Positions 1 to 19,851 of a stretch of 42,081 nucleotides of DNA are shown one piece after another (position 1 is the first letter of the stretch; every line of letters starts with the position of its first letter). Source of the DNA: Candidatus Sericytochromatia bacterium (lineage in GTDB: Bacteria > Cyanobacteriota > Sericytochromatia > S15B-MN24 > UBA4093). Where the stretch lies: assembly GCA_036676985.1 (NCBI GenBank), contig JAKFBU010000062.1, positions 1 to 42,081 on the forward strand. Reading direction: 5' to 3'. The translations under genes and the position numbers were made by a program. Under the pieces are notes generated by a model, which saw nothing but the letters and a program-made list of their open reading frames with translations, did no database searches and was not told the origin of the DNA.

Positions 1-2097
1 GACCCCCGCGGCATCGCCTTCGACGCCACGGGCAGCGCCTACGTCTCGGACGGCACGGCCAACCGGCTCTACCGGATCGACGCCACCTCGAGCGCCCCGG
101 TGAACGTCACCGTCTCGGGCGATGCGCTCAACAACCCGCGGGGCATCGCCTTCGGCTCCGACGGTCGCCTCTATGTGGCCAACTTCAACGCCAACAACGT
201 CCTGGGCGTCGCCATGAACGTCGCCGGCAACTCGGGCGCGAGCGCCATCTTCAAGCAGGGCCTGAGCGGCCCATGGGGCGTGGCCTTCGACTCGGTGGGC
301 AACATGTACGTCAGCAACAACCGGGGCAACTCGCTCTACCGCTGGCACAAGGACAGCGACACCATGTCGCCCTACGCCGACATGCCGACCCCGGGCGGCC
401 TGGTCGCCGACCGCTCGGGCTACGTGTACGCCATCGACAACTTCTCCAACAACCTCTACCGCATCACGTCGCTCGGGGACTCGGCGCTCTTCGCCAGCGG
501 CCTGAGCGCGCCCACCGGCATCGTGAAGGTCGGCGACGTCCTCTACGTGCTCAGCCGGACCAACAACAGCCTGGTGGCCGTGGACACCACCACCACGGCC
601 CTGAGCACCGTGGCGCGGGGCTTCAACCAGCCCATCGGACTCACCTACGACAACGTGCGCGACTGCTTCTACGTCACCAACGTGGGCAACGGCACCATCA
701 CGCGGGTCCAGCGCAGCAACGGAGCGGTCACGACCGTCATCACGGGCCTGCCCGGCTGGAACAGCGGTCCGGCGGGCATTGCCTACCGCGCCGGCAAGCT
801 CTACGTCTCGGTCGGCAGCTCGGTGCGCGCCTACGACGTGACCAACTTCGGGGCCGGCTATACCAGCAACACCTCGGTCATCGACCAGCTCAAGGGCCTG
901 AGCCGGGACAACTCGGCGAGCGCCAACGCGGGCTCCTTCTACATCGCCACGGGCACCAATCATCGGATCCTGCGCATCAACAACGATGCCATCAACACGG
1001 GGTTCAACAGCAAGGACGGCACCAACTACGTGGAGGTCTTCAAGGCCCAGGCCGACGACGCCAACCTCAACAACCCCCGGGACGTGGCCGTCGACGGCTC
1101 GGGCAACGTCTGGGTGGCCAACGAGAACAGCCACCGCCTGACGAGCTACAAGCCCGACGGCTCGATCCACGTGGCGGCCATCAACAGCGGCACCCAGCCG
1201 TTTGCCGTCAACTTCGACGGCACCTACATCTGGGTGGTCAACTACGGCTCCAAGAACCTCGTGGCCTACAACCCCGCCACCGGGACGGCGGCCATGACCC
1301 TCACCTGCGGAACGGATACGCCCCGCAACATCGCCTTCCGGGGGACCACCATGTACGTGGTCTGCAACGAGGGCATCGGCACCATCCCCAACTACGCCAC
1401 GACGGGCACCTACGGCCGCATCACCACCCTGGGCGCCAACTCCGCCGACATCGACGTGGCGAGCGACGGCACCATCTACGTGATGCGCAGCCAGGGCTAC
1501 CGCATCCCCGCCGACCTCAGCGGCGAGATCCAGTGGATCACCAACTACGACGGCCCCAACTTCATCTGGAAGATCCCGGGCCAGGACGACTTCTACTACA
1601 CGGACTACTACCGCTTCGGCAAGACCAGCCACGGCAACCACAACTACCGCATGTCCGGCTCACGCCGGGATGCCCATGGCTACCGCCTGGCGGGCGTCGA
1701 CTCGAACCTGAACGTCTACATCCAGGGCGGCACCACCTGCGGCAAGGATGCCACCACGCGGATCCAGCCCGGTGCCCGCCAGCGCGAGTGGTGGTACAGC
1801 GAGGACGACGGGGACTGCTACGACCAGACCCAGGGCGCCTTCGCCGCCGACGAGTCCGGGCAGCTCTTCATCGTCGTCTACCGCGGCATGGCCGTCCAGA
1901 AGCTGGACGCCACGGGCACCCAGACCAACGTCGTCGGTGGCCTGGGCTCGTCTTATACCTCGTACGGCCTGTGGTCCGACACCACGGGCTCGACCCTCTA
2001 CCAGACCAGCAGCTCGCACCACCGCGTCGACCTGATCAACGTGGCGGCCAAGACCCGCACCATTCAGCCCTACGGGCTGAGCGGCGCGGAAATGTAG
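1..2097 (+). CDS. NHL-repeat / beta-propeller surface protein, 5' truncated by window edge
   Basis: Frame +1 is open from base 1 (DPRGIAFDATGSAYVSD...). Repeated PxGIAFDxxGxLYV NHL-like motifs. TAG at 2095-2097. Confidence 0.85.
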   Translation, partial: DPRGIAFDATGSAYVSDGTANRLYRIDATSSAPVNVTVSGDALNNPRGIAFGSDGRLYVANFNANNVLGVAMNVAGNSGASAIFKQGLSGPWGVAFDSVGNMYVSNNRGNSLYRWHKDSDTMSPYADMPTPGGLVADRSGYVYAIDNFSNNLYRITSLGDSALFASGLSAPTGIVKVGDVLYVLSRTNNSLVAVDTTTTALSTVARGFNQPIGLTYDNVRDCFYVTNVGNGTITRVQRSNGAVTTVITGLPGWNSGPAGIAYRAGKLYVSVGSSVRAYDVTNFGAGYTSNTSVIDQLKGLSRDNSASANAGSFYIATGTNHRILRINNDAINTGFNSKDGTNYVEVFKAQADDANLNNPRDVAVDGSGNVWVANENSHRLTSYKPDGSIHVAAINSGTQPFAVNFDGTYIWVVNYGSKNLVAYNPATGTAAMTLTCGTDTPRNIAFRGTTMYVVCNEGIGTIPNYATTGTYGRITTLGANSADIDVASDGTIYVMRSQGYRIPADLSGEIQWITNYDGPNFIWKIPGQDDFYYTDYYRFGKTSHGNHNYRMSGSRRDAHGYRLAGVDSNLNVYIQGGTTCGKDATTRIQPGARQREWWYSEDDGDCYDQTQGAFAADESGQLFIVVYRGMAVQKLDATGTQTNVVGGLGSSYTSYGLWSDTTGSTLYQTSSSHHRVDLINVAAKTRTIQPYGLSGAEM

Positions 2098-2108
2098 GAG
2101 ATTCACGC

Positions 2109-5100
2109 ATGCTGCGTCGCTTGCTCACCATCGCCGTCGCCTCGTTCATGCTGGCGGGCTGCCTCAAGCCCATCGCCAGCACGCTGACGAGACCGGACCA
2201 GACCGTGACCGCCCTGTCGGCCGCGCACCTGCATGGGCAGATCGGCACCATGAAGGGCTATCACGTCCAGCTCACGGACCTCCTCGAGGACTTCGCCAAG
2301 GGTGCGACCGTCTCCCTCATCGAGGTCTCCACCGGCAACACGGTCGGTACGTCGATCGCCGACGCGAGCGGATCCTTCGTCATCAAGTTCGGAGCCTCGT
2401 TCACCGCCAAGCGGGCCAATCCGACCGACGCGCGCTCGATCGGCTACTACCTGGAGGCCGTCAAGGGCCTCCAGGGCGGCAACTCCGCGCCCAACCAGGC
2501 GGGAGCGGACGCCATGCGCCTCCGGACGCTCATCTGGTACGACTTTGCGAACAACGGCTGGATCAGCCTCGGCAACCAGACGCCGGGCCCCATCAACGTG
2601 AGCATCGGCACCACCTCCGTCGCCTTCTACATCAACCAGCAGCTGGTCAACGCCCAGGCCGTGACCCCGGAGGCCTACATCGGCTCCCTGAACACCCTGG
2701 TCGATCCCCCCGCCTACCTGGGCGCGGGCGCGGGCGTGCTCGCGGGCACCGGCGTCCGCAACCTCGCGGCCGACATGTACTCGGACCTTTTCACCCAGAT
2801 CACCAATGCCGTGGCCAAGGACCAGGATCCGCTGCACTCGATCGTGCTCAGCCCCTCCGGCGGAGCGGTCAACACCCAGACGAGCTTCACCTTCGCCGGC
2901 ATGTCCCCGCTCGCCGGCAGCATCGGCACGACCGTCACCATCGCCGGCACCGGCTTCGAGCCCGGCAACATGACCGTCAACTTCGTCGGCGCCGCGGCCA
3001 CCATCAACGTGGGCTCGAGCAACGCCACCACCCTGGTGGTCAACGTCCCGGCGGGCGCGCGCAGCGGCCTCATCCAGCTCACGCTGAACGGCGTCAACAC
3101 CTACTCCACGCCCTTCAGCGTCACGAGCCACGACGGCCACCTCGTGTACTTCACGGATGCCGGCGGCAATACGACCCTCTACTCGGTCACCAACAGCCTG
3201 GGCACACTGGTCCGGGTGAACCCGAACGGCAGCACCTACACGCTCAGCACGGCCCTCTCGTCGCCCCGCGGCGTGCTCGTGAACCCGGAGGGCGCGACGT
3301 CCGCCCCCTACAAGATTTACGTGGCCAATGGCGACAACCGCGTGGTCCAGATGGACAGCACGGGGGCCATGCTCGATGCCAGCTGGCTCGCGGTCACGGA
3401 TCCGTACGCCCTCTCGCTAGGGCCGGACGGCGACCTCTACGTGGCCCAGCGCAGCTCCAACCAGATCACGCGCTTCGACGTGAACTGGGCGGCCGGGACC
3501 CTGACGGGCACCGTCGCCACCTACACCGGCTTCTCGGCGCCTTCGGCCCTCGCCTTCGACCCGAGCGGCTACCTCTATGCGGTCGAGACGGCCCAGGGTC
3601 GGGTGGTCCGCTTCCGCCCCCAGGCCGGGGACACCGGCAGCGTCGCCCTGTCGCCCGTGGTCTATCCCACGGCGCCCACCGCCCCGCACAACTGCGAGGT
3701 CTGGGCCTACGTGCCGGATCCCCAGGGCATCGCCATCGACACGGCCGGCAACAGCTTCGTCACGAGCCAATCCAACAACGTCGTGATGCGGGTCGATCCG
3801 GTGGGCAACCTGACCTCCTTCGCGGGCGTGAGCGGGGCCCGGTCCATCGCCCGCGACGCCGCGGGCAACCTCTACGTAAGCGAGCAGACCCGCAACTTGA
3901 TCCGCCGCATCACCCTCGCCGGCGACCAGCGCATCCATGCCTTCGGCCTCTCGGGTCTGCGGGGCCTGGCGGTCGACGGCTCGAACAACCTGTACGTCTC
4001 GTTGTCCAACGTGGGCGCCATCCTCAAGGTCGACAGCGATCTCAAGACGACGTCCTCGCTCATCTCGGGCATCGCGCCGCCGTCGGGCCTCACGTTCCGC
4101 AACGGCAAGCTCTACATCGCCCACAACGACGACGGTACGCCGAACAAGCCGTGCTGCGGAGGCAACAACGGCCCCTCCGTCAGCGAGGTGGAGCTCTCTG
4201 GCGCCGCTCGTTCGGTGCTCACGTCCGGGATCTACTGGCCCGGCGCCGCCGAAGTCAGCGACGACGGCGCCACGTACTACGTGGGACGGGTCTACGGCAC
4301 GTACGGCGCCTGGCCCGACTCCATGTGGTGGTACAACACCTGGGACAACGCCGGCATCAACGTCGTCAACCCCGGGGCCGGGACCAACGTCCACCGGCGG
4401 CCGGTCGTGCCCCAGTTCAGCGCCGACGGCTACTGGAACACGCTTGCACAATCGATTGAGCGGGTGGATGTCGATCGCTGGCTCTACACGAGCTCGGTCC
4501 GCAAGAAGCTCGTCATGTCCGTCCGGCTGAACGGCCGGGACGGCACCAACGAGTGGCGCGACATCACGCCCCCCGGCTTCACGAACAAGGTCTTCCCGAA
4601 CGACATCTACGACGTGGTCTACGACGGTAGCCAGTACGCCTACGTCGCGTGCCGGGACGGCAACATCTACCGGATCGACCTGAACAACGTCACGGGCGTC
4701 CCCGGCACCATCTCGGTCCCGGGCGGCTACCCCTTCGGCATGACCATGGTGGGCGGCACGCTGTACGCCACCGACCCGGGCGCCAACAAGATCCACGCGA
4801 TCGCCTCGCCCGCGACGGCCACCACCGTGACGAGCTCGACCGCCGCGGCCGCCGTGGCGCAGCCCCGTGGCATCACCAACTATGGCGGCACCCTGTACGT
4901 CACGGACTACACCAACCGCCAGATCATGGCCGTCACGCCGGGCACCTGGGCGGTGGCGACGCACATCACGGGCCTCGCCGGCAGCCCCACGCGGGTGCGG
5001 GCCTTCAACGACGGCCGGCTCCTGGTCCGGGTGAGCGACGGCGTCATCTACCAGATCTCGACGGGCACCCCCGCCGCCACGGCCTACCGATCCACGATCG

Positions 5101-5579
5101 GCTGCACGGGTTGCGACTCGTACGAGTTCTACATCGACGCCTCCAACGGCGTGCACTGGGGCTACCCGATGCGCTGCTGGCAGCGCGGCAACGATGGCCT
5201 GCTGCATACGCACTCGGTCATCCGGGATGGGGACTGGCTCTACATGGGCGCCACCAACGCCATGTACGCCATGAACCTCAACACCGGCAACGACCTGGTC
5301 ATCAACGGCATCGGCAACGTCTTCGGCGTCGCGGTGGATCCCGACACGCGCATGCTCTTCACGGGCAGCACGGGCGGCGAGATCTACGGCATCGACGGCA
5401 CCACCCGGGTCATCTCCAATGGACCTGACCTGAACCAGGCCATCTGGGGCATGGCCTACAACAACGGCAACGACCGCCTGTACGTGGCGGCCAACGGCAA
5501 CAACTCGCTCTACGAGGTGAACCCCAGCGGCTGGACCCAGTCCCAACTCAAAGTGGGGCTGAATTCGCCGATGTTCTAG
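2109..5579 (+). CDS. Large lipoprotein with N-terminal domain, IPT/TIG domain and many NHL/beta-propeller repeats (~1156 aa)
   Basis: TAGGAG RBS before ATG 2109. Signal peptide with lipobox MLAGC. IPT-like SPLAGSIGTTVTIAGTGF. Repeated PxGIAxDxxGNxYV motifs. The upstream extension to 273 is a shadow of the previous gene. Confidence 0.85.
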   Translation: MLRRLLTIAVASFMLAGCLKPIASTLTRPDQTVTALSAAHLHGQIGTMKGYHVQLTDLLEDFAKGATVSLIEVSTGNTVGTSIADASGSFVIKFGASFTAKRANPTDARSIGYYLEAVKGLQGGNSAPNQAGADAMRLRTLIWYDFANNGWISLGNQTPGPINVSIGTTSVAFYINQQLVNAQAVTPEAYIGSLNTLVDPPAYLGAGAGVLAGTGVRNLAADMYSDLFTQITNAVAKDQDPLHSIVLSPSGGAVNTQTSFTFAGMSPLAGSIGTTVTIAGTGFEPGNMTVNFVGAAATINVGSSNATTLVVNVPAGARSGLIQLTLNGVNTYSTPFSVTSHDGHLVYFTDAGGNTTLYSVTNSLGTLVRVNPNGSTYTLSTALSSPRGVLVNPEGATSAPYKIYVANGDNRVVQMDSTGAMLDASWLAVTDPYALSLGPDGDLYVAQRSSNQITRFDVNWAAGTLTGTVATYTGFSAPSALAFDPSGYLYAVETAQGRVVRFRPQAGDTGSVALSPVVYPTAPTAPHNCEVWAYVPDPQGIAIDTAGNSFVTSQSNNVVMRVDPVGNLTSFAGVSGARSIARDAAGNLYVSEQTRNLIRRITLAGDQRIHAFGLSGLRGLAVDGSNNLYVSLSNVGAILKVDSDLKTTSSLISGIAPPSGLTFRNGKLYIAHNDDGTPNKPCCGGNNGPSVSEVELSGAARSVLTSGIYWPGAAEVSDDGATYYVGRVYGTYGAWPDSMWWYNTWDNAGINVVNPGAGTNVHRRPVVPQFSADGYWNTLAQSIERVDVDRWLYTSSVRKKLVMSVRLNGRDGTNEWRDITPPGFTNKVFPNDIYDVVYDGSQYAYVACRDGNIYRIDLNNVTGVPGTISVPGGYPFGMTMVGGTLYATDPGANKIHAIASPATATTVTSSTAAAAVAQPRGITNYGGTLYVTDYTNRQIMAVTPGTWAVATHITGLAGSPTRVRAFNDGRLLVRVSDGVIYQISTGTPAATAYRSTIGCTGCDSYEFYIDASNGVHWGYPMRCWQRGNDGLLHTHSVIRDGDWLYMGATNAMYAMNLNTGNDLVINGIGNVFGVAVDPDTRMLFTGSTGGEIYGIDGTTRVISNGPDLNQAIWGMAYNNGNDRLYVAANGNNSLYEVNPSGWTQSQLKVGLNSPMF

Positions 5580-6512: not shown

Positions 6513-6516
6513 TCAG

Positions 6517-6588
6517 AGCGGATGAAGAGATTCGAACTCTCGACCCCCTCCTTGGCAAGGAGGTGTTCTACCACTGAACTACATCCGC
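6517..6588 (-). tRNA. tRNA-Gly(GCC), CCA not encoded
   Basis: GCGGATG-TAGTTCAGTGGTAGAAC-ACCTCC-TTGCCAA-GGAGG-GGGTC-GAGAG-TTCGAAT-CTCTT-CATCCGC-T folds into a canonical cloverleaf. Confidence 0.97.
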
Positions 6589-7917: not shown

Positions 7918-9294
7918 CTAGAACTGGAAGGTGCCCCCGACCTTGAGGCCGTAGACGAGCTGGGAGCCTGCGGCGCCGAGCAGGTAGCTGCGGGCCGTGC
8001 CCTCGGTGAAGAGGCGCATGCCGCCCATCCCGAAGCCGAGGCCCAGCGATCCGATGGCCTCCGAGCCCGAGATGGGCGCGACGACCTGACCTTCGGTCCG
8101 GGTATCGACGCGGTTGACCGTCGTGCCCGCGGTGTAGCCGCCCGCGCCCGCGCCGGCGGTGGTGACGTTCTGGGTCACCTCGTTGCTGACGACCGTCACC
8201 GTGTTGGTGGTGGCGGTGCCGATCAGGACCGGTGCGTAGCCGACCTGCGAGTAGACCTGCATGCCGCCCAGGGCGTAGGTGGCGTTGAGGCCGAGCACGG
8301 GCCCGAGCGCGAACAGCGACATGTTCGAAGCGTAGGACTGGTTGTACTTCCAGGAGCGCGTGACGGTGGCCGTGTCGGCCGCCGTGGCCCCGACCGCATT
8401 CTCGGTCTCGGAGGCCACATCCCCCGAGTTGTTGGCGCCGGTGGTCTTGGCCGTGAAGCTGCGGCTCTCGAAGGCCGTCGGAATGGTGAAGCCGCCGAAG
8501 AACGACACGGCGCCCGACGGATTGTCCCAGACGACGTAGTTGGCGTTCAGGCCCACGTCGTTGAGCCAGAAGGTCCGGCCCTGGGTGTAGGACGCGCCGC
8601 CCGTCGAGGTGAACGTGCTGTTGGGGGCCGCGGCCGCGCTGGTGCCCGAGCGCAGCACGAAGGCCGACGCCCCGGCGGGGGTGGTGAAGCCGCCGTAGGT
8701 GGTCGATACCACCGTGCTGCCGGCACCGCCCGTCGGGCCGATGGTGGTGGTGAGGGTGCCGACCCCGAGGCCCGCCCCCGGGGTGATGGAGATGGTCTCG
8801 CCCACCACCGTGGTCTGGGCGCCCGAGACCGTCGTGAGGAAGGTGCTGGCCTGCTGGCCGTTCAGGTGCTGGATGTTGGTCGTCTGGCCGGCGTTGAGGT
8901 AGGCACCGAACAGGTTCGCACCGAGACCGAGGCGATCCGCGCCCCACCAGGTGCCGTCCACCCCGTACATGAGGCCGATGCCGTCGCCGAAGGAGCCGAA
9001 GTTGCTCACCGACGGGCTCGCGTTCGAGGTCGTGGTGGTGGTCGTGCCCTGGGTGGTCGTGTTGGTGGTGGTCTTGGACTGCGTGCGGGCGAGCGACGTG
9101 TTGGCGTTGCCGGCCTCGAAGGCCGGGCCGATGAAGAGGCGCAGCTCGGTGCCCGTGCGTGCGCCGGCCGCCGGCGAGGTGGCGGCCGCCGGCGCTGCGG
9201 TCGAGTTGGAGCGGCGGATCTGGGCGTGGCCGGGGGCGGCCGAGAGGCCCACCAGGCTCACGCTGAGGGCCACGGGCAGGATGATGTGCTTCAA
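7918..9294 (-). CDS. Secreted Thr/Gly-rich protein, probable outer-membrane beta-barrel
   Basis: GGAG RBS, TTG start, Sec signal (..APGHA/Q), alternating amphipathic strands, C-terminal YGLKVGGTFQF ending in Phe. Confidence 0.7.
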   Translation of the reverse strand: MKHIILPVALSVSLVGLSAAPGHAQIRRSNSTAAPAAATSPAAGARTGTELRLFIGPAFEAGNANTSLARTQSKTTTNTTTQGTTTTTTSNASPSVSNFGSFGDGIGLMYGVDGTWWGADRLGLGANLFGAYLNAGQTTNIQHLNGQQASTFLTTVSGAQTTVVGETISITPGAGLGVGTLTTTIGPTGGAGSTVVSTTYGGFTTPAGASAFVLRSGTSAAAAPNSTFTSTGGASYTQGRTFWLNDVGLNANYVVWDNPSGAVSFFGGFTIPTAFESRSFTAKTTGANNSGDVASETENAVGATAADTATVTRSWKYNQSYASNMSLFALGPVLGLNATYALGGMQVYSQVGYAPVLIGTATTNTVTVVSNEVTQNVTTAGAGAGGYTAGTTVNRVDTRTEGQVVAPISGSEAIGSLGLGFGMGGMRLFTEGTARSYLLGAAGSQLVYGLKVGGTFQF

Positions 9295-9375
9295 ACGAGG
9301 ACTCCTTAATCGTGTCGGGATGCGGCGACGGTGTAACGAATGATAACGCCTGCTCGCGAACCTGCCAAGAAAGCG

Positions 9376-9401
9376 AAAAACCCCGGCCGAACGGCCGGGG
9401 T
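9376..9401 (-). terminator. Terminator downstream of tRNA-Sec
   Basis: ccccggcc/ggccgggg stem followed by TTTTT on the minus strand. Confidence 0.8.
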
Positions 9402-9407
9402 CAGGAG

Positions 9408-9501
9408 CGGAGGCGTGTAGGAATCGAACCTACCAAGGCCGGGTGAACCGACCTTCGCTGGTTTTGAAGACCAGAGGGCCCACCAGGACCCCTTCGCCTC
9501 C
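9408..9501 (-). tRNA. selC: tRNA-Sec (UCA), intact copy
   Basis: GGAGGCGA-AG-GGGTCC TGGT GGGCCC-T-CTGGT CTTCAAA ACCAG-CG-AAGGTCGG TTCAC CCGGCCTT-G-GTAGG TTCGATT CCTAC-ACGCCTCC-G: UCA anticodon, 6-bp D stem/4-nt loop, long variable arm. selA/selB are nearby. Confidence 0.95.
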
Positions 9502-9504
9502 CTG
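9445..9504. repeat. att direct repeat copy 1 (5' 57 nt of tRNA-Sec + 3 nt leader)
   Basis: gaaccgaccttcgctggttttgaagaccagagggcccaccaggaccccttcgcctccctg is identical to 16112-16171. Confidence 0.95.
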
Positions 9505-9516
9505 AACAACCTAAGC

Positions 9517-9545
9517 ATCATACCATGCCCGTTTGAGGTTCCCAA
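9517..9545 (-). promoter_or_regulatory. Element-supplied promoter for the intact tRNA-Sec
   Basis: TTGGGA-N17-TATGAT with TGn extended -10 (tgG TATGAT), 15 nt upstream of the tRNA 5' end and inside the element. Confidence 0.65.
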
Positions 9546-9630
9546 GTGGGCTTCGCCCCACCGCAAACCAGCGTATCCGCTAGTTCTGTTTCTGCCGTTG
9601 AAGACTTCGATGAATATAGGAGGAGTCTTC

Positions 9631-10746
9631 ATGTCTGACTATCTAAGCATCCAAGCAGCTGCCGCCCTGGTTGGCGTGAGTGAGTCCTCACTTCAGAAGA
9701 AGTGCAAAGCAGGAGAAATTCCAGCGATACGCGTTGGCAAGCAGTATCGTATTAGGCGAACTGACCTGGAAGCCTGGGTTACGTACGTCCCAATGCCCAA
9801 GGAAATCGGCGGTATGGCCCAGCCAGGCGATGCATTGGCCATGTTTGAGGCCATTGATCGCTGGCAAGGCTTTATGAGCTTAAAGGAGTTGTCTCCCACA
9901 ACCAGGGCCAGCTACTATGCCTGCCTCATCTCGTTCCTCAAACAGCTAGAGTTCACAGGAGCGGGCGTTCCACGGCCGTCTCAACTGTTTCGGCGAGAAA
10001 CCCTAGTGAGAGGACTTGAGGGGTTTGCCGCAAAGTCCCACAGTCACAAGCGGAACGTAGCAAACGCAATCATCTCGTTCGGGCGTTTCTTAGTGTTTGA
10101 AGGCAAACTTCAACCAGACGCATTGCAAGTGATTCGCGACCTACGCCCAACGCGTGGGCCAGCGCCACGCCGCACCTGTTTGAGGGTTAATGACGCACCG
10201 AAGTTATTCCATGCGATCTCTATTCGAACGGCCGACCCCCATGAAAATATCACCTTAGCAGCTATTGTCGGCGTTATGTTGTACTGCGGCCTTCGTGTAT
10301 CTGAAGCCCTAAGCCTGTGTGTTGGCGATGTGTCTCTCCAGGAAAGGAGCATCGCCGTTCGCCACGGAAAAGGCAAGAAGGATCGCAAGGTTGGAGTTCG
10401 GCGAGAACTAGTTCGGCTAGTCGAGAATTACTTAGCGGTTCGGCCTGAGATCAGAGAGCGACAAGGTGAATTGGCTTGTAGGAATGAAGATCGATTCTTC
10501 TTACGACCTGACGGAATCACCTGGAACAAGGATCAGATCGCCTGGCGCATGAGACAGCTCTCCAAACTCCTCGGTTACCAGATTGGGGCCCACTCACTTA
10601 GAAGAGCGTTCGCCACCCAAGCCGTGGCGCAAGGACGCTCGCTACGATATGTTCAGCAAGCACTAGGCCATTGCTCTATCGCCGTAACCGATGCATATGT
10701 ACGGACATCGGAAGCCGAAGCTGTTGAAGCGATGAAGGAATGGTAG
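9631..10746 (+). CDS. Tyrosine recombinase/integrase with N-terminal excisionase-type (HTH_17) domain
   Basis: AGGAGGAG RBS. N-terminus YLSIQAAAALVGVS...GEIPAIRVGKQYRIRRTDL. Catalytic R (GLRVSE), K (GKGKK), HxxR (AHSLRR), H (LGH), Y (TDAY). Confidence 0.92.
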   Translation: MSDYLSIQAAAALVGVSESSLQKKCKAGEIPAIRVGKQYRIRRTDLEAWVTYVPMPKEIGGMAQPGDALAMFEAIDRWQGFMSLKELSPTTRASYYACLISFLKQLEFTGAGVPRPSQLFRRETLVRGLEGFAAKSHSHKRNVANAIISFGRFLVFEGKLQPDALQVIRDLRPTRGPAPRRTCLRVNDAPKLFHAISIRTADPHENITLAAIVGVMLYCGLRVSEALSLCVGDVSLQERSIAVRHGKGKKDRKVGVRRELVRLVENYLAVRPEIRERQGELACRNEDRFFLRPDGITWNKDQIAWRMRQLSKLLGYQIGAHSLRRAFATQAVAQGRSLRYVQQALGHCSIAVTDAYVRTSEAEAVEAMKEW

Positions 10747-10913
10747 CGAGACTCCAAGATAGTCCGCCTGCTGACGGCACTTGCCGCAGATCGAAAGCTT
10801 CGGGCCATTAATACTTGACGATAGGAAAGTTCGACGAAGAACCATGGAATGCCGTTGTCTGGGAACCCAACTCAATAACACTGACGCCAGCTTCTGAAAG
10901 TTGGCCTTCCTAC

Positions 10914-11180
10914 TCAATCGCCCTCGCCATATAGCAGCCAAGCAGCGCTTACCCCCAAGACCCGCGCCAATGCAATAACCTCTATATCAGTCACTGGGCG
11001 ATCACCTGCTTCAAGCCTACTGATTGTCGTTCTACCGACTGGCTGACTAACGGCACAAGATAAGGCCTCAGCAAGATCGGCTTGATCAAGCGGTGGCAAG
11101 TGCGCAAGGCGGGCCGCCCTTACGCGTCCGCCTACGATATTCTTCGTTCCCTTTTCAATCGCTCTTTTCGGCCTCGCCAT
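10914..11180 (-). CDS. XRE/Cro-C1 helix-turn-helix regulator
   Basis: NIVGGRVRAAR...DQADLAEAL...RTTISRLEAGDRPVTDIEVIALARVLGVSAAWLL. Confidence 0.85.
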   Translation of the reverse strand: MARPKRAIEKGTKNIVGGRVRAARLAHLPPLDQADLAEALSCAVSQPVGRTTISRLEAGDRPVTDIEVIALARVLGVSAAWLLYGEGD

Positions 11181-11225
11181 TGCCTTGTCTTCCTGACCAG
11201 GCAAGCGTATGCCGATTCCACGTAT

Positions 11226-11250
11226 CCTGTGTGCATCAGATGCACACAGG
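11226..11250. promoter_or_regulatory. Palindromic operator candidate between divergent XRE and NHL genes
   Basis: cctgtgtgcatc-a-gatgcacacagg (12-bp perfect arms). Confidence 0.55.
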
Positions 11251-11363
11251 GTAAAAAGCTGGCAAGCATTGGTTGGCAAGGACTTGTATTGGGTAACATG
11301 TGAATGCTAGCCAGCATGAACAAAATCTTGTATCGAGTCGCAAGAGAATCGGAGGATGAAACA

Positions 11364-13406
11364 TTGAAACGAATCGCCGCTCTCAGCTTGGTTTTACTGT
11401 CAGCTGGTTGCACGGGTCTTGGAATTGGGCTCATTCCGCCAAAACCTGGAAATGATGCGGTCGCGTCACTACCAACCACGACTCCAAGCCAGACGCCAAC
11501 CAATGAGAGTCCCTCGATCAGAGAACTTGCAGGATCTGTCACAACCTTCTTTGGCATTGGTAGCCGATATTTGGACGGACCTCGCAACACTGCAAGCTTT
11601 GTTCGCCTAGAAGGTGTCACGATTACCTCCACTGATGAAGTGTATGCTATCGATGGAAACACGATTAGAAGGATTGATGCATCTGGCAATGTTTCTACCC
11701 TTGCAGGTGATATAGAGGAGGGGGACGCCGACGGTATCGGGCGTGAGGCTCGCTTCAAACAGCCGACCCGTATCACAATTGACCAGCAAGGTAATCTCTT
11801 GGTGGTTGATACAGGAAATCATAGGATTCGTAAGATTACACCTGACGGGACTGTTTCAACGTTGGCGGGGAGCACTTCTGGACTTGAAGATGGCGTTGCC
11901 AATTCGGCAAAATTCGATTCGCCGAAGGGAATTGTCGTTGACGCATCGGGAAATGTCTTCATATGTGATACTGGGAATAGCCGCATTCGCAAGATTACGC
12001 CCCAAGGAGTCGTTACAACATTGGCTGGCGGTACAAGCGGCTTTGCGGACGGATTGGGAACTGATGCAAAGTTCATGTGGCCGAGAGGGCTAGCAATTGA
12101 TTCGAATGGCAACCTGTATGTTGCAGATCAAGGAAATTATCGAATTCGAAAGATCACTCCAGGAGGCGAGGTGTCAACCGTCGCAGGAGGTTTATATGGA
12201 CACGCAGATGGCATAGGCAACTCTGCTCAGTTTAAGTCTCCTATGGATATTGCTTGCGATGACTCAGGAAAACTGTATGTTATCGATATGGGCTATGTAA
12301 GAGTTATATCCTCCCAGGGAGTTGTCTCTACAAGTGCTGGTGCTTCTCAGGAATGGGGTCCAAATGCGATTGCATTAAGGCCAGATGGCGGCCTGATATT
12401 GACAGACCATTACTATTATCGCCTGTGGAGTGTGTCAAATCAAGGCGAGATAACTTCTTTCGCGGGTATTGGAACAGACAAACCAAGTCCGATCGCTGAG
12501 CCAAGCGGAATTTGTTTCGATAGCAGCGGCAACCTAATTATTGCCCGTATCAGAAGTTGCATTAGTAAGGTTACACCTAGCGGCGAATTGTCAACTGTTG
12601 CTGGAATCACCAGAAATGGAAACGCCTATGTCGACGGCGGATGGGTAGATGGACTTATTAGTGAAGCACGCTTTAGCGATCCGTTGGGAATCGCTATGGA
12701 TAAAGGAAATAATGTTTACGTAGCTGATACTGGAAACAATGTAATCAGAAAGGTAACACCGAACGGAACGGTATCAACGTTTGCTGGCGTCGGCTATGGT
12801 TTTGCTGATGGTGCAAGTTCTAGCGCCAGATTCAATGCTCCAAGCGATGTTGCAGTAGATAGCTTTGGCAATGTGTATGTTGCCGATACTGGGAACCACC
12901 GAATCCGTGTTATCTCACCTCAAGGCGAGGTATCAACGTTAGCAGGAGGCACGCAGGGTGCCTCAGATGGTCTAGGAAATAGTGCACAATTCTACAGTCC
13001 CAGCGGACTTGCGCTTGATACGTCAGGCAACATTTTTGTCGCTGATCGGGATAACTGTAGAATTCGCAAAATAACCCCTGAGGGGAGCGTCTCAACAATT
13101 GCAGGCAGTTCCCCTGGATTTATTGATTCCATCGGGCCTGGGGCTCAGTTCAAGTATCCGACTGATGTCATCGTTGATTATGCTGGCAATGTGTTCGTTG
13201 CCGATCACGACAACCATCGGATTCGAAAAGTCCTACCCGACGGAACGGTTTCAACGCTAGCAGGGGGAACTCAAGGCCACGCCGACGGGTTCCAAGATGA
13301 AGCGCGATTCATCGGGCCTCGCTATTTGGCTTTCCACAAAGACGGAAGGCTCTTTGTAAGCGATGCTGCAGGGGACTTGGGACATACAATTCGAATTGTT
13401 GAATGA
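11364..13406 (+). CDS. NHL-repeat lipoprotein (element cargo)
   Basis: GGAGGA RBS + TTG, lipobox LSAGC, about 12 repeats of DG...A.F..P.GIAVD..GN.YVADTGNHRIRKITP.G.VSTLAG. Confidence 0.9.
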   Translation: MKRIAALSLVLLSAGCTGLGIGLIPPKPGNDAVASLPTTTPSQTPTNESPSIRELAGSVTTFFGIGSRYLDGPRNTASFVRLEGVTITSTDEVYAIDGNTIRRIDASGNVSTLAGDIEEGDADGIGREARFKQPTRITIDQQGNLLVVDTGNHRIRKITPDGTVSTLAGSTSGLEDGVANSAKFDSPKGIVVDASGNVFICDTGNSRIRKITPQGVVTTLAGGTSGFADGLGTDAKFMWPRGLAIDSNGNLYVADQGNYRIRKITPGGEVSTVAGGLYGHADGIGNSAQFKSPMDIACDDSGKLYVIDMGYVRVISSQGVVSTSAGASQEWGPNAIALRPDGGLILTDHYYYRLWSVSNQGEITSFAGIGTDKPSPIAEPSGICFDSSGNLIIARIRSCISKVTPSGELSTVAGITRNGNAYVDGGWVDGLISEARFSDPLGIAMDKGNNVYVADTGNNVIRKVTPNGTVSTFAGVGYGFADGASSSARFNAPSDVAVDSFGNVYVADTGNHRIRVISPQGEVSTLAGGTQGASDGLGNSAQFYSPSGLALDTSGNIFVADRDNCRIRKITPEGSVSTIAGSSPGFIDSIGPGAQFKYPTDVIVDYAGNVFVADHDNHRIRKVLPDGTVSTLAGGTQGHADGFQDEARFIGPRYLAFHKDGRLFVSDAAGDLGHTIRIVE

Positions 13407-13463
13407 TTCTCGACGTATGGAGAACGGGGTCCTTTGCAGCAAGTACAAGGTAGGAAATTCGAG

Positions 13464-13810
13464 CCGCCCTTGAGGGCGGATAGGTGGGTGATCGCTCGGG
13501 CCTTAAGCTAAGGGTAGCGCCCGAGCGTGCAGTTACAGGGACCGAGGCATGAGTGGGAAGGTGGAAGCCGTGCCGAGGCCGCTCCTATGAGGTTTCGCCC
13601 CCCTCGCTTCACTACAATCCCATCATTATTGGGGGTGAAGGGGAAGTGGCGGGAGAGGCGGAGCACGTGCGCCACTGTGGACGCCGTGCTAAAGCCGTGA
13701 GGGAGGCGAAAGCCGCTGCTGCTTGCTGCTCCGCAAGGGGCATCCCTGGTCCACTGCACTAGCCCAAAGAGGGCGATGGGGTTTAGGGGCCTCTTCGCCC
13801 TCTCTGGGCT
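13464..13810. other. Multibranched structured non-coding region (single-strand origin or ncRNA candidate)
   Basis: Nested complementary segments 13527-13541/13743-13759 and 13593-13607/13697-13711, plus at least five local hairpins. Confidence 0.55.
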
Positions 13811-13902
13811 CATTCCAAGTGTTGTAAGATTCTTCAGTTGCTACTTTCCTTCTAGAACCTCAGCCCGACAGACGGGCAACGACAAAGAGGAGATGGAAGG
13901 AA

Positions 13903-14253
13903 ATGACCATTAGATCTTGGTGCGCGGCCTGCTCAGAGCCGATTGATGATCCTGAGTTCCGCCTCAGCCACTCGGGCGGAGCCTGTGCTGTAAGCGTAAC
14001 TAGAAGCTTAGATAGCGCCCTACACCCTAGACATGCAGCTTCAGAGAGCTTGGCTGCCTGGCTTCGATGCTACCTGGAGGCCGTTGATGAGGATGGGCGC
14101 ATGGTGGCGCCTATCAGCGGAATTGATGCACGCGGCTTCCTTTACCTGCGAAAGACGTTCTTTCGGCTTGCCGAGCGCCAGGGCTCCGAACGAATAGCAA
14201 GGGTTTTGGTACTCAAATGGAGAGAGATCTATGCCGCGTATTTCAACAGCTAG
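13903..14253 (+). CDS. Hypothetical protein (116 aa, N-terminal CxxC)
   Basis: Purine-rich RBS (gaggag/ggaagg) before ATG. WCAACSEP. No recognised family. Confidence 0.5.
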   Translation: MTIRSWCAACSEPIDDPEFRLSHSGGACAVSVTRSLDSALHPRHAASESLAAWLRCYLEAVDEDGRMVAPISGIDARGFLYLRKTFFRLAERQGSERIARVLVLKWREIYAAYFNS

Positions 14254-14475
14254 CCCGAACTACCTCTCTTGTGACCACTTAGTCGCGGATTACGCTTCGA
14301 CTTTCGGTAGGCTGCCACGTCCCGTTTCCGTTTCTCTCCCCTGACCCAGTGAGACGCCCGTACCCCTTTCGTGAAGGCGAGGCAAGGCGCGTCCATCAAG
14401 TGAGCGGAGGGCGATCCAAAGTCAGAAAGGGACCACCCCCGCGTAGATCACCCCTCGGCGGGGGCTAAGCTACAC

Positions 14476-15492
14476 TTACTCAAAGTATAGGTAAGTTCCC
14501 CTGGCCCAAGAGGGTGGAAACACCAAGCACTTTTCGTCGACGAGTTGGGATATGGACTTGAACTCAAAGCGTTCAACAAGCTGGGGCGTCTTGCTGATGT
14601 CGATCCCCTGGGGGAGAAGCTCCTTCCGATGCTTGTAGAAGGTACTCTCCGACATCCCGTTCCTGACATCGAAGCCACTCAACCACAGGTGATAAGTTCG
14701 ACGTACCGTAGTAGGCACTCTGTCATCAGCCTCTATTGGCAACGAAAGATTGGTAGGCATCACGAGCCTGTCAGCCTGCTCCCGCAGGAGATGGAATCCA
14801 GTCATCTGATCCCACGCCGCAGGAAAGCAAAGATTCTTTTGATGAAGCTTTCGCTCATGAAAGGTTACTTCGAAGCGGAGGAGGCCTCTACTGAAGTCCA
14901 AGAGACGAGGATAGTCCTCACTAAGGAGTAGGGATAGGTTTGCATTTCGGCCAAACTCTACCCCCTTGTTATAGAGACAAATCGTCAGGGTCCTAGATCC
15001 CTTGCCAATGTATATGGTTGGGGATACTTCCCGCTCAACCGATACTCTGGACCTTGCACCACGCAGACTAATGGCCCCTGCAGCTGCGGAAAGGTACCTG
15101 GAAACGACAAAGTCGTTAGGCAGACGAAGGTTGAAATTCACGGAAACGGACTTGAGGCGGACCTGTCCATCCAGGATTTCCTGGGCAAGCGCCGCGGGTA
15201 CGTCTATTCCCGCCTTATCTAGAACAGAGAAGATCGCCTTAGGAAAGACGCTCATAAGATTGCTCGGGCCAAAAAGGTTATGTCCCTGAAGGAACTTCGA
15301 AGGGTTAACCTGAATGGCAAGCTCATGGCCAATATCAGCAACGACATTCCTGCTCGTTAGCCAAGCGATGGCCCCATGCTGACCTTGCACCGACCTTGGT
15401 TCTGGCCGACCTTCTCTCCAGGTAGCACTATGCCTCAAGGGGAGCGTTACACGAAGTCCATCGATCATCGCCGCGTTGAGATCCATTTCCAT
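14476..15492 (-). CDS. Phage/plasmid replication protein, gene II/X family (rolling-circle initiator)
   Basis: MIDGL.., NPSKFLQGHNLFG, TIYIGKGSR..LYNKGVE, LLRFEV, and C-terminal TYHLWLSGFDVR..MSESTFYKHRKELL..GIDI typical of Phage_CRI/Phage_X (rep_II_X) proteins. Start uncertain (15468-15519). Confidence 0.85.
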   Translation of the reverse strand: MEMDLNAAMIDGLRVTLPLRHSATWREGRPEPRSVQGQHGAIAWLTSRNVVADIGHELAIQVNPSKFLQGHNLFGPSNLMSVFPKAIFSVLDKAGIDVPAALAQEILDGQVRLKSVSVNFNLRLPNDFVVSRYLSAAAGAISLRGARSRVSVEREVSPTIYIGKGSRTLTICLYNKGVEFGRNANLSLLLSEDYPRLLDFSRGLLRFEVTFHERKLHQKNLCFPAAWDQMTGFHLLREQADRLVMPTNLSLPIEADDRVPTTVRRTYHLWLSGFDVRNGMSESTFYKHRKELLPQGIDISKTPQLVERFEFKSISQLVDEKCLVFPPSWARGTYLYFE

Positions 15493-16111
15493 AGATTGCT
15501 CTCTTTCTTGTGGCTGCAATTCCTCCTTTCAGTCCTACGCAAGCCAAAGCACACTCAACTGAGCGCCGAAATCGACACTCAGATCCACATGTTTTTAGGC
15601 TTGTTAGGGTGAGCAACCTGGTTCGGTCGATGGGCCAAGGCCATCGCCTTGCGTTAAATCAATCCGCACGAATGCAGCTATGGCCGTGCGAGCCTACACT
15701 AGCCTAGCTTGCTACAGTTGTCAAGCCCGATCTAAAAGACCGTTGATCTTGAACGCTCGCAAAAAATTTTCCACGGCCGACTGATAACGAACGAAGCCGA
15801 GGTTACCTGGTTTCCACGCCCTACCCCCCGCACCCTGCAACGGAGCAAGATACGTGTCGCGCGCTGAACGGCACAATGGCCTACGTTAAACAAGCCTTGG
15901 AAGGGCGAGTAGACAAACTATAGAGGAAAGCCTGCATCCCTTTGCGGGAGCGACCATCTGTCGGATAATGGCCGACAAGTTACCCTAAATCTTCAACGGA
16001 CGGAACGGATTTACCCGCAGTAGCCAAACGGGTGGGCACGCTTTTTATATGGTGCTTAATAGCGCAACTATGGCGCAAGATAAGGATCGTTGGCCTGGCA
16101 TCTACCTGGCC

Positions 16112-16171
16112 GAACCGACCTTCGCTGGTTTTGAAGACCAGAGGGCCCACCAGGACCCCTTCGCCTCCCTG
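16112..16171. repeat. att direct repeat copy 2 = truncated 5' tRNA-Sec fragment at the native selC position
   Basis: Identical to 9445-9504. Lacks the 3' variable arm, T-arm and acceptor 3' strand. Confidence 0.95.
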
Positions 16172-16196
16172 TGGGCGGCGGACCGCCCATTTCGTC

Positions 16197-16225
16197 AATC
16201 TATCGGGTTGAAAGCGCCTTGTCAA
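16197..16225 (-). promoter_or_regulatory. Native selC sigma70 promoter (now upstream of the truncated tRNA copy)
   Basis: TTGACA-N17-TAGATT on the minus strand, followed by leader hairpin tgggcgg/ccgccca and the tRNA 5' end at 16168. Confidence 0.75.
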
Positions 16226-16455
16226 ACGTTGCGCCGGATCGAGCCGGGCCGGGGCAGGACCATGAAGGCCGGCCGCGCGGGCTCGGCGGCGGCTTCGGGA
16301 GTGCCCGGGGCGGGCGTGCCGGGGCCGCTCAGGATCTGGCCGTAGTTGTCCAGGATGAGCTGGCAGGGCGAGCAGATCCACTGGCCCGCCCGCTTCCCGA
16401 TTCCCGGGGTCGTGCGATTCTGGCAATAAGGGCAACGGCCGCCATGGGTCACCAT
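16222..16455 (-). CDS. Small zinc-ribbon protein
   Basis: GAGGGGAG RBS. CPYC-x16-CSPC followed by a Pro-rich tail. Confidence 0.6.
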   Translation of the reverse strand: MVTHGGRCPYCQNRTTPGIGKRAGQWICSPCQLILDNYGQILSGPGTPAPGTPEAAAEPARPAFMVLPRPGSIRRNV

Positions 16456-16576
16456 CGATTCGCTCCCCTCCTCAACTCCGGTCGCTGTGACCCATCATGC
16501 CCCAACTGGCGGCGACGAATCGGTGGGGATCGTCACCGCCAGTCGCGATCGCGGCCTTTCGGCCAAGCCGCGGGCG

Positions 16577-18453
<1,877 letters not shown>

Positions 18454-18457
<4 letters not shown>

Positions 18458-19851
18458 GCGCGCAGCACTCCTTCCAGGGCGGTGATGATCCGCTCCACGT
18501 CCCCCTCGAGCAGCGTGCGCGGGTCCAGGAGGACGGCGTCGTGCTCGATGCGCGTGACCACGGGCGGGTCCGCGCGGCGCAGGCGATCGGCCAGGGACTG
18601 GGCGTCCATGTGCCGGGGCCGCAGGGAGACGAGCACGGTCGGGATCAAGGTGGCGGGCAGGGAGCCTCCGCCCACCTGGGACTGGCCCTCGGGCATGGTC
18701 ACGGTCAGCTCCTCGCCGAACTGCTGACGCAGGGGCGCTGCCAGCTGCTCGGCGTCCTTGCGCAGGTCCTCGATCCGGCGCGTGAGCATGCGCAGGGTGG
18801 GAATCTCGGTCATGGCGCGCTTGGGGTCCAGGTAGGCCCTGAGCGTCTGCTCGAGGCCCGCGAGCGTCACCTTGTCCTGCCGGAGGGCGCGCAGCATGTG
18901 GTTCTTCTTGAGGCGGGCGATGAGCTCCCGCTTGCCCACGATGATGCCGGACTGGGGACCGCCCAGGAGCTTGTCGCCGCTGAACGTCACCAGATCGATA
19001 CCCGCCTTGACCGTCTCCTGGACCGTCGGCTCCTTGGGAAGGCCGTAGGCGGAGAGGTCCACGAGCACGCCGCTGCCCAGGTCCTCGACCGACAGGACGT
19101 CGTGGCGCTGGGCGATCGCGGCCATCTCCTCGGGCGCGACCTCCGCGGTGAAGCCGACGATGCGGTAGTTGGAGGTGTGGCAGCGCATGAGCATGGCCGT
19201 CTCGGGGCTGATGGCGCGCTCGTAGTCCTCCGGGTGGGTCTTGTTGGTGGTGCCCACCTCGACGAGCCGAGCACCCGAGGCCGTGAGCACCTCCGGAATC
19301 CGGAACGAGCCGCCGATCTCGATGAGCTGACCGCGCGAGACGACGACCTCGCGGCCGCGCGCGAAGGTGTCCACCACCAGGAGCACGGCCGCCGCGTTGT
19401 TGTTGACGATGACGGCGGCCTCGGCGCCCGTCAGGCGGCAGAGGAGCTCCTCGACGTGGGCGTAGCGCGAGCCGCGCTTGCCCGTCTCGAGGTCGAACTC
19501 CAGGTTGGAGTAAGCGCAGGCGATCTCGGCGAGCGGCTCCAGGAGCTGCGGAGCGAGGGGGGCCCGACCGAGGTTGGTGTTGAGCACCACGCCCGTCGCG
19601 TTCACGACGCGGCGCAGGTTGGCGCGCGTCTCCGCGCGCAGCAGCTCGAGGGCCCGCTCGATCACGGACTCGGCCGTGGGCGGCTCGCCGCCGGCGCGGA
19701 CGGCGTCGCGCGCCTCGGACAGGACCCGCTGCAGGGCGGCGACGATGCGCGCATGGTCGTAGCGGGCCATGGCCTCGACGACGGGCGGGGCGTTGAGCAG
19801 GGAGCTCACCGAGGGCAGGGCCCTCAGACGGAGGTTCAAATCATTGGTCAT
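18454..19851 (-). CDS. selA: L-seryl-tRNA(Sec) selenium transferase
   Basis: LRALPSV, VVNATGVVLNTNLGRA, VNNNAAA, EIGGSFRIP, FSGDKLLGGPQ (PLP Lys). ATGA overlap with selB. Confidence 0.97.

Follow-up and report, generated by a model that had tools for sequence, protein, structure and literature searches.

We conclude that a 6,667-bp integrative plasmid-like element has probably recombined with the single selC gene of its host, the gene for the selenocysteine tRNA (tRNA-Sec), and that this tRNA is now most likely transcribed from element DNA. The element lies on contig JAKFBU010000062.1 of assembly GCA_036676985.1 from Candidatus Sericytochromatia bacterium, and the 42,081 nucleotides (nt) of this contig that were analysed are referred to below as the window. 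In the mechanism that we propose, the attachment site of the element (attP) would carry a piece of selC that begins shortly before the gene, spans the anticodon arm and reaches into the variable arm, preceded by a promoter-like extended -10 box. Conservative recombination with the chromosomal site (attB) would yield a left junction (attL), in which the host promoter and the host 5' part of selC up to the crossover are followed by element DNA, and a right junction (attR), in which the promoter and 5' part come from the element and the 3' part and terminator from the host. The sole tRNA-Sec gene would in this way lose both its native promoter and any read-through out of selA-selB, and selC would be transcribed from element DNA, most likely from the site TTGGGA-N17-TGgTATGAT. 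Most plausibly, the element promoter keeps integration neutral for a selenocysteine-using host rather than having a regulatory role.

ARAGORN called two tRNA genes in the window, one of which is a tRNA-Sec with anticodon TCA. This intact selC (9407..9501, minus strand) scores 75.2 bits with the Rfam model RF01852 (cut-off 47), is the sole selC of the assembly, and combines a 5' part from the element with a 3' part from the host. Just 3' of it, in host DNA, lies a terminator-like hairpin with a T run (9379..9402, minus strand), detected by a hairpin scan, and an equivalent follows selC in G001, a genome of the same genus. A second RF01852 match at 16072-16165 reaches 31.3 bits, below the cut-off, and was counted as a fragment. 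The two loci share an exact direct repeat of 60 nt (9445-9504 and 16112-16171, spacing 6,667 nt), which is the sole long repeat in 8500-17500. On the tRNA strand it extends from -3 to +57 and includes the acceptor 5' strand, the D arm, the anticodon arm, and the 5' strand and loop of the variable arm. The copy at 9445..9504 is the attR copy of this identity block, and the copy at 16112..16171, where the host promoter precedes a truncated 5' fragment of selC, is the attL copy. In a gapped alignment, a degenerate variable-arm remnant extends the truncated copy to ~16090, as far as the first T-arm bases; the piece of selC carried by the element therefore exceeds the 60 bases of exact identity. 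The GC content of the island is 0.46-0.58 (9600-15999) versus 0.65-0.75 in the flanks, or roughly 50% versus 70%.

The truncated copy is preceded on its own strand by selA (18454..19851, minus strand; SelA, 5e-163), selB (16577..18457, minus strand; profile match), and a zinc-ribbon-like open reading frame (ORF) of 77 amino acids (aa) with a CxxC...CxxC pattern (16222..16455, minus strand). This host ORF has no Pfam match, and its region is 82% identical to G001. The original prediction, made from the sequence alone, had described attachment repeats covering tRNA positions -3 to about 57, a truncated copy at the native position behind selA, selB and the zinc ribbon gene, a promoter-like site before each copy, and a complete tRNA with its terminator 6.7 kb away. 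All of these were recovered, by the repeat search, by profile matches and synteny with G001, by a consensus scan for promoters, and by the Rfam and hairpin scans, respectively.

The order of genes in G001 establishes which copy is native. Positions 2-2324 of its contig C9 align to window 18441-16114 (82% identity) and positions 2267-5228 align to window 9504-6513 (78%). The overlap of these alignments corresponds to the repeat, and window 9505-16111 has no counterpart on this contig. In G001, the last part of the zinc-ribbon ORF leads directly into TTGACA-N17-TAGATT, then into an intact selC, a hairpin terminator and the downstream sequence known from the window. This synteny places the truncated copy (16112-16171) behind the native promoter and leaves the intact gene with host DNA on its 3' side only. 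A classical 3'-type integration read the wrong way round was also considered as a candidate and was ruled out by the G001 synteny on both sides. A tRNA-Gly(GCC) at window 6516-6588 lies at the same distance from selC in G001.

Empty sites were also found in two of the four public sequencing runs, X3 (a further sample from what is probably the window's own study) and X6 (from a different study), as contigs that join 9444 to 16112 and omit 6,667 nt. The X3 contig with this joint has 3,840 nt at a depth of 35.8, with 0 and 2 differences on its two sides, and the depth of this run is zero over most of the island. Run X6 contains a 501-nt contig with the joint, plus 151-nt element pieces, and run X2 had no joint at the site, with short pieces only. 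The native selC of this population is, according to these empty-site contigs, identical to the rebuilt one. The insertion is precise, and the selC site is polymorphic in nature. Relatives without the island, a comparison that the original prediction had called for, are provided by G001 and the X3 and X6 contigs, which carry an empty attB short by exactly 6,667 bp. In addition, short contigs matching the replication gene rep of the element (14710-15288) occur in X2 (groundwater) and X6; the X6 rep pieces differ at 0-1 positions, and one of these pieces has a deletion of 9 nt. Another X6 piece matches the element side of attR (9498-9648) without differences. The element, or close kin of it, is therefore present beyond the source sample.

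A second, related element is integrated at selC in G011, a genome of another family of the same order. Its integrase is 52% identical to that of the window and divergent from an intact selC (69.4 bits), and a 5' selC fragment (43 bits) lies 10,625 bp upstream of the intact gene; this is the integrase homologue with the same 5'-tRNA duplication for which the original prediction had proposed a search. The two copies are identical only from -3 to +46, and beyond this point they have different, internally compatible variable arms; upstream they have a similar, non-identical stretch of 20 nt in common. The G011 element (L044, G011:C14 5568-16308) is 10.6 kb in length, and its cargo is unrelated to that of the window: a XamI-family endonuclease, an Eco57I-like methylase, and a 1,192-aa protein without a Pfam match. 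In G013, of the genus of G011, selC and the downstream genes are in common with G011, while the integrase and the upstream DNA are not. A third integrase, with 52% identity, is divergent from and adjoins the 5' end of selC on the metagenome contig L047.

Relatives of the integrase are few. Matches were obtained in 4 of the 47 genomes of the class (E-value at most 1e-20, the window's own genome included), in 4 of 401 sampled genomes of the phylum (at most 1e-60), and in 7 among 5.8 billion protein clusters (at most 1e-40, self included). In the metagenome scan, 373 of 597 stretches were confirmed and 80 were kept, with full-length matches of at least 48% identity in L047 and a second contig, L048. 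A peptide-pattern search of species genomes gave four integrase loci, all partial and with no more than 43% identity over short segments, and viral contigs gave 14 integrase-like loci, the best of them partial matches with 35-39% identity. The selC integrases (window, G011, L047, P0002 and P0003) form a clade with support of 99/98 in a tree of 14 rows, from which P0001 (the query itself) and P0006 (taken as the G007 protein) were left out.

Two further loci of these relatives involve other tRNA genes. In G007 (L045, G007:C1 10920-17268), a 44%-identical integrase is divergent from the 5' end of tRNA-Leu(TAG) and is followed by HNH, DUF3854 and DUF927 (primase-helicase-like) genes; in the empty-site comparison for this locus only the tRNA itself was matched in three of four genomes. 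In L048 (1813-11116), a single tRNA-Ser is flanked by two integrases of the clade, which have 47% and 48% identity to the integrase of the window. One of these adjoins the 5' end of the intact tRNA-Ser(TGA) (9804-9891, 60.6 bits), and the other adjoins a 65-nt 3' fragment of the same tRNA (1813-1877), which ARAGORN calls as a tRNA and to which Rfam gives no score. Both integrase genes are ~110-165 bp from the anticodon. This arrangement looks like a tandem of a classical 3'-type and a 5'-type element, and suggests that the identity block in this clade may lie on one side of the anticodon or the other. Next to the tRNA-Ser fragment, the host flank contains a guanidine-II riboswitch match at 1659-1709 (38.9 bits, cut-off 32).

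Each selC copy in the window is preceded by a promoter-like site. The native site, TTGACA-N17-TAGATT (16197..16225, minus strand; 10/12 in the consensus scan), now faces the fragment and the element, and the same two hexamers precede the intact selC of G001. The element site, TTGGGA-N17-TGgTATGAT (9517..9545, minus strand; 9/12 plus the TG of an extended -10), has its -10 hexamer ending 15 nt before tRNA position +1, and the host promoter has a leader of 27 nt. Both look like ordinary sigma-70-type promoters of similar quality. The native leader between the -10 hexamer and selC (16166-16196, minus strand) contains a short GC-rich inverted repeat, and G001 has a different small palindrome there.

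The extended -10 is a common property of these elements. A TGgTAnnnT box ends 11 nt before +1 in the G011 and L047 elements, and all three selC elements have the box at 11-15 nt. Among the native selC loci of family f3, from which the G011 locus was excluded as element-side, a TGnTAnnnT box is located 11-12 nt before +1 in five of six cases and ~37 nt away in the sixth. The selC contigs of the five genomes with the close box gave no Phage_integrase match. The native (upstream) copy of selC in G011 carries the same TGnTAnnnT-type box. The element promoter looks like a selC promoter of the f3 lineage that was carried along with the attP arm. Copying of this promoter from the present host was considered and rejected, as selC in the window's genus has a native promoter that is laid out differently. 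Judging from these motifs, transcription of selC from the element promoter is likely.

The host appears to need its tRNA-Sec. Its assembly consists of 79 contigs with an estimated completeness of 100%, and has one tRNA-Sec above the cut-off; the other ten matches are sub-threshold, and the best five of these ten are ordinary tRNA-Ser, Leu, Gly/Pro and Lys loci. Two loci (G000:C26:280471-281394 and G000:C27:47599-49638) encode selD and a 1,014-aa formate-dehydrogenase-alpha-like (fdhA-like) frame, with one in-frame TGA each, and are candidate selenoprotein genes. Given these genes and the intact selA and selB, a 5'-side integrator without a working promoter would be costly to the host, and this cost of silencing selC is the simplest reason for an element promoter. 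According to the original prediction, the supply of tRNA-Sec, and hence all UGA-Sec decoding, depends on a promoter of the element, unless another intact selC elsewhere supplies the tRNA. No such gene was found above the cut-off in the assembly. The dependence on the element is supported by the element-derived 5' part and upstream DNA of the sole selC, by the TGA-containing genes, and by the promoter-like box; the use of this promoter itself is what we infer.

The position of the crossover is limited by two lines of evidence. The G011 copies differ past +46, which places the crossover between -3 and +46. In addition, a repeat search in the window revealed a pair of putative arm-type sites in inverted orientation, P (9585..9607) and P' (15987..16009), the first of which is conserved in the G011 and L047 elements. 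Their cores (9588-9605, minus strand, and 15989-16006, plus strand) are three mismatches apart and lie ~85-105 nt inside the element ends; the 42 kb contain only these two matches versus 0.06 expected. On the attP circle, the symmetry centre of the pair falls at tRNA position ~37, and the anticodon occupies positions 35-37. Site P is probably bound by the integrase. The G011 element has the integrase-side copy only, with no inverted partner within three mismatches. Taken together, the arm symmetry and the G011 limits suggest that strand exchange most likely takes place in the anticodon stem-loop region, the classical symmetric sublocation, and the identity block contains the anticodon arm. The anticodon-loop sublocation (Williams 2002) has been described as strand exchange in the anticodon loop flanked by a symmetric stem (PMC8371274).

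The original prediction had further interpreted the exchange of promoters as a reversible regulatory switch, in which integration and excision toggle the supply of tRNA-Sec, and with it all decoding of UGA as selenocysteine, between two states of expression. Sites with and without the element are indeed found in nature, the promoter layouts differ (a -35/-10 host promoter with a 27-nt leader versus an extended -10 element promoter with a 15-nt leader), and the insertion uncouples selC from the co-directional selA, selB and zinc-ribbon genes. However, we see two ordinary promoters (10/12 versus 9/12 plus TG) with no sign of differing strength or of regulation, and Pfam and PHROGs scans of the element ORFs recognised no excisionase gene separate from the integrase. 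The G011 element, with its unrelated restriction-modification cargo at the same site, fits a neutral docking site better, and the promoter is more simply what a 5'-side integrator must carry to spare selC. We therefore consider a switch improbable, and this part of the original prediction is not supported.

Several observations weigh against integration of the kind proposed here, or against its generality. The contigs of X1, which is probably the source run, are 31-mer unitigs. They end at the repeat, so that the flanks, the island (6,667 nt) and the repeat (60 nt) form separate pieces, and this graph fits the integrated form and an empty site plus a free circle equally. The depth of the island (15.8) is below that of the flanks (20.2 and 27.5), and the depth of the repeat (41.6) is close to the sum of flank and island, although contig depth does not equal the share of cells. 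The integrated arrangement in the source sample rests on the original assembler. For L047, G007 and the L048 integrase at the tRNA 5' end (L048-B), we see only an integrase adjoining the 5' end of a tRNA gene, with no displaced fragment found at any of the three: the displaced tRNA-Leu fragment was not found in 9 kb in G007, to ~400 bp short of the contig end, and the displaced fragment of L048-B was not found in 4.6 kb. Finally, the consensus scan finds no -35/-10 promoter before either the element-side or the native copy of G011, and the promoter argument for this genome rests on an extended -10 read by eye.

The X1 data bring up the possibility of an assembly artefact, in which a free rolling-circle plasmid with attP and an intact chromosomal selC were threaded together via the shared 60 bp; the replication initiator (Rep) encoded by the element agrees with this. 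We regard such an artefact as unlikely. The 42-kb contig traverses both junctions, and the 60-mer is present only twice in its own assembly, both times on the window contig, with no separate attB or attP contig. Moreover, in two other assemblies a related integrase has element DNA on one side and selC plus the host downstream genes on the other. Even if the artefact were real, the content of attP would still predict 5'-side integration with the same outcome. Least probable of all is that selC is not driven by the predicted element promoter, being either silent along with a decaying selenocysteine trait or read through from deeper in the element: a weaker promoter-like site, TAGTCA-17-TATATT (9613..9641, minus strand; consensus scan), does lie further upstream of selC on the same strand, but selA, selB, selD (with its TGA) and the fdhA-like TGA gene are intact, read-through from the XRE regulator gene of the element would have to cross ~1.1 kb of antisense integrase, and the extended -10 is kept in all three selC elements, whose integrases are only 52% identical. 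Integration on the 5' side that leaves selC behind element DNA is well supported.

More tentatively, and with less than even confidence, we propose that the exchange of promoters is reciprocal and serves the element as well, and that the clade restores its tRNA target in two mirror-image ways. In the circular form, transcription from the element promoter would pass the selC fragment and reach rep, and after integration the displaced host selC promoter would drive the first element genes. The first genes behind the displaced promoter are indeed co-directional with it, namely rep (590 nt away) in the window and the restriction-modification genes in G011. Within 15400-16500 of the window there is no other promoter-like site, and the two weak terminator-like hairpins found there are at chance level; the corresponding G011 stretch has no terminator-like site. 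If this proposal is true, the clade is a natural system for studying how the identity block of attP switches sides of a symmetric core.

Six element ORFs were scanned in Pfam and PHROGs. The integrase gene (9631..10746, plus strand; Phage_integrase 6e-26; listed ORF start TTG 9598) encodes an N-terminal HTH_17 domain and a tyrosine-recombinase catalytic domain, and is divergent from selC at ~130 bp from tRNA position +1. It is followed by a gene for an XRE-family helix-turn-helix regulator, a candidate repressor (10914..11279, minus strand), a cargo gene for a 700-aa NHL-repeat beta-propeller protein (11304..13406, plus strand), whose N-terminus looks lipoprotein-like by eye, and a 116-aa ORF without a family match in either database (13903..14253, plus strand). 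The rep gene (14476..15519, minus strand; Phage_CRI 1e-24; phrog_702) encodes a rolling-circle replication initiator of the gene II/X family, which is ~29-31% identical over 72-95% of its length to the Reps of gene II/X-family rolling-circle plasmids and of the inovirus I2-2. The carriers of the matched Reps are plasmids of 1.8-2.8 kb and the 6.7-kb phage I2-2, with no integrase among the features listed under the matches. No phage structural or morphogenesis family (Zot/pI-type ATPase, coat) was recognised among the six element ORFs (ORFs of at least 50 aa), and we therefore call the element integrative plasmid-like and not a prophage. It shares the gene II-type Rep with filamentous (inovirus) prophages, but not their morphogenesis genes. 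Elsewhere in the window, a 1,768-aa ORF is located at 273-5579 on the plus strand.

Displacement of the 5' part of a tRNA gene has precedents, and the novelty that the original prediction implied for this mode was overstated. The Islander collection contains 3,919 islands, 3,760 with a 3' fragment of the tRNA gene (tDNA) and 159 with a 5' fragment, and its filters explicitly accept 5' fragments that precede the gene (Hudson, Lau and Williams 2015; PMC4383910). As described there, 5'-fragment islands have an intact tDNA, an upstream 5' fragment in the same orientation, and a tyrosine integrase between them over 2-200 kb, the gene being restored from the island's own 5' copy. The element is alike in all these respects: in the layout of its fragment, in the integrase within the 6,667-bp interval, and in its precise absence from relatives. 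In the passage that gives it, the figure of 159 is a count without tRNA or integrase family.

The pTN3-like/TKV4 integrases of Thermococcales are similar in that attB is the 5' half of a tRNA and the rebuilt tRNA depends on element DNA (PMC5495485, PMC8371274). The tRNA is said to be expressed from the integrase promoter in such archaeal systems, which are described as seldom met in bacteria (PMC8371274), and the legend of S2 Fig in Cossu et al. 2017 describes a rebuilt tRNA-Leu separated from its original promoter (PMC5495485). These archaeal integrases differ in being 'suicidal', with attP inside the integrase gene, which is split on integration (PMC5495485, PMC8371274), whereas the window integrase at 9631-10746 is whole and lies outside the repeat. 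The source of the promoter differs as well, as the integrase in the window is divergent and a separate promoter-like box faces the tRNA. In the dusA islands, the 5' end of the target is likewise replaced, with putative -10/-35 boxes upstream before and after integration (Farrugia et al. 2015; PMC4482086), but the target is protein-coding and the integrase family is different. Altogether, 5'-displacement of a tRNA gene is a known kind of integration that is rare in bacteria. New features here are the 5' target side at selC, the small clade of integrases, and arm sites with the anticodon at their centre.

The selC islands of E. coli are among the classical selC integrators. Our literature searches returned no printed case of 5'-side integration at selC, a weak negative, since phrases containing 5' are not searchable. 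The Pf-tRNA-Sec filamentous prophages have the same target gene as the element, a gene II-type Rep, and HTH_17 proteins, which in Pf are excisionases (PMC7549136). These prophages use a 27-bp 3' block; a 3' block with a retained host promoter is not what we find in the element, whose block covers -3 to +57.

The finding leaves our knowledge of selenocysteine decoding unchanged. It provides a clean bacterial example of 5'-side integration into a tRNA gene, including the empty site, that would be of use for island-finding software that assumes 3' fragments, for work on the evolution of attachment sites, and for the use of these integrases as genome-engineering tools, since an attP of this kind brings its own promoter. 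It also points to a small clade of integrases whose gene lies ~100-130 bp from a tRNA-derived block that may be placed on either side of the anticodon. For the host, the integration means that the sole selenocysteine tRNA gene of the cell has been made dependent on the DNA of a mobile element.

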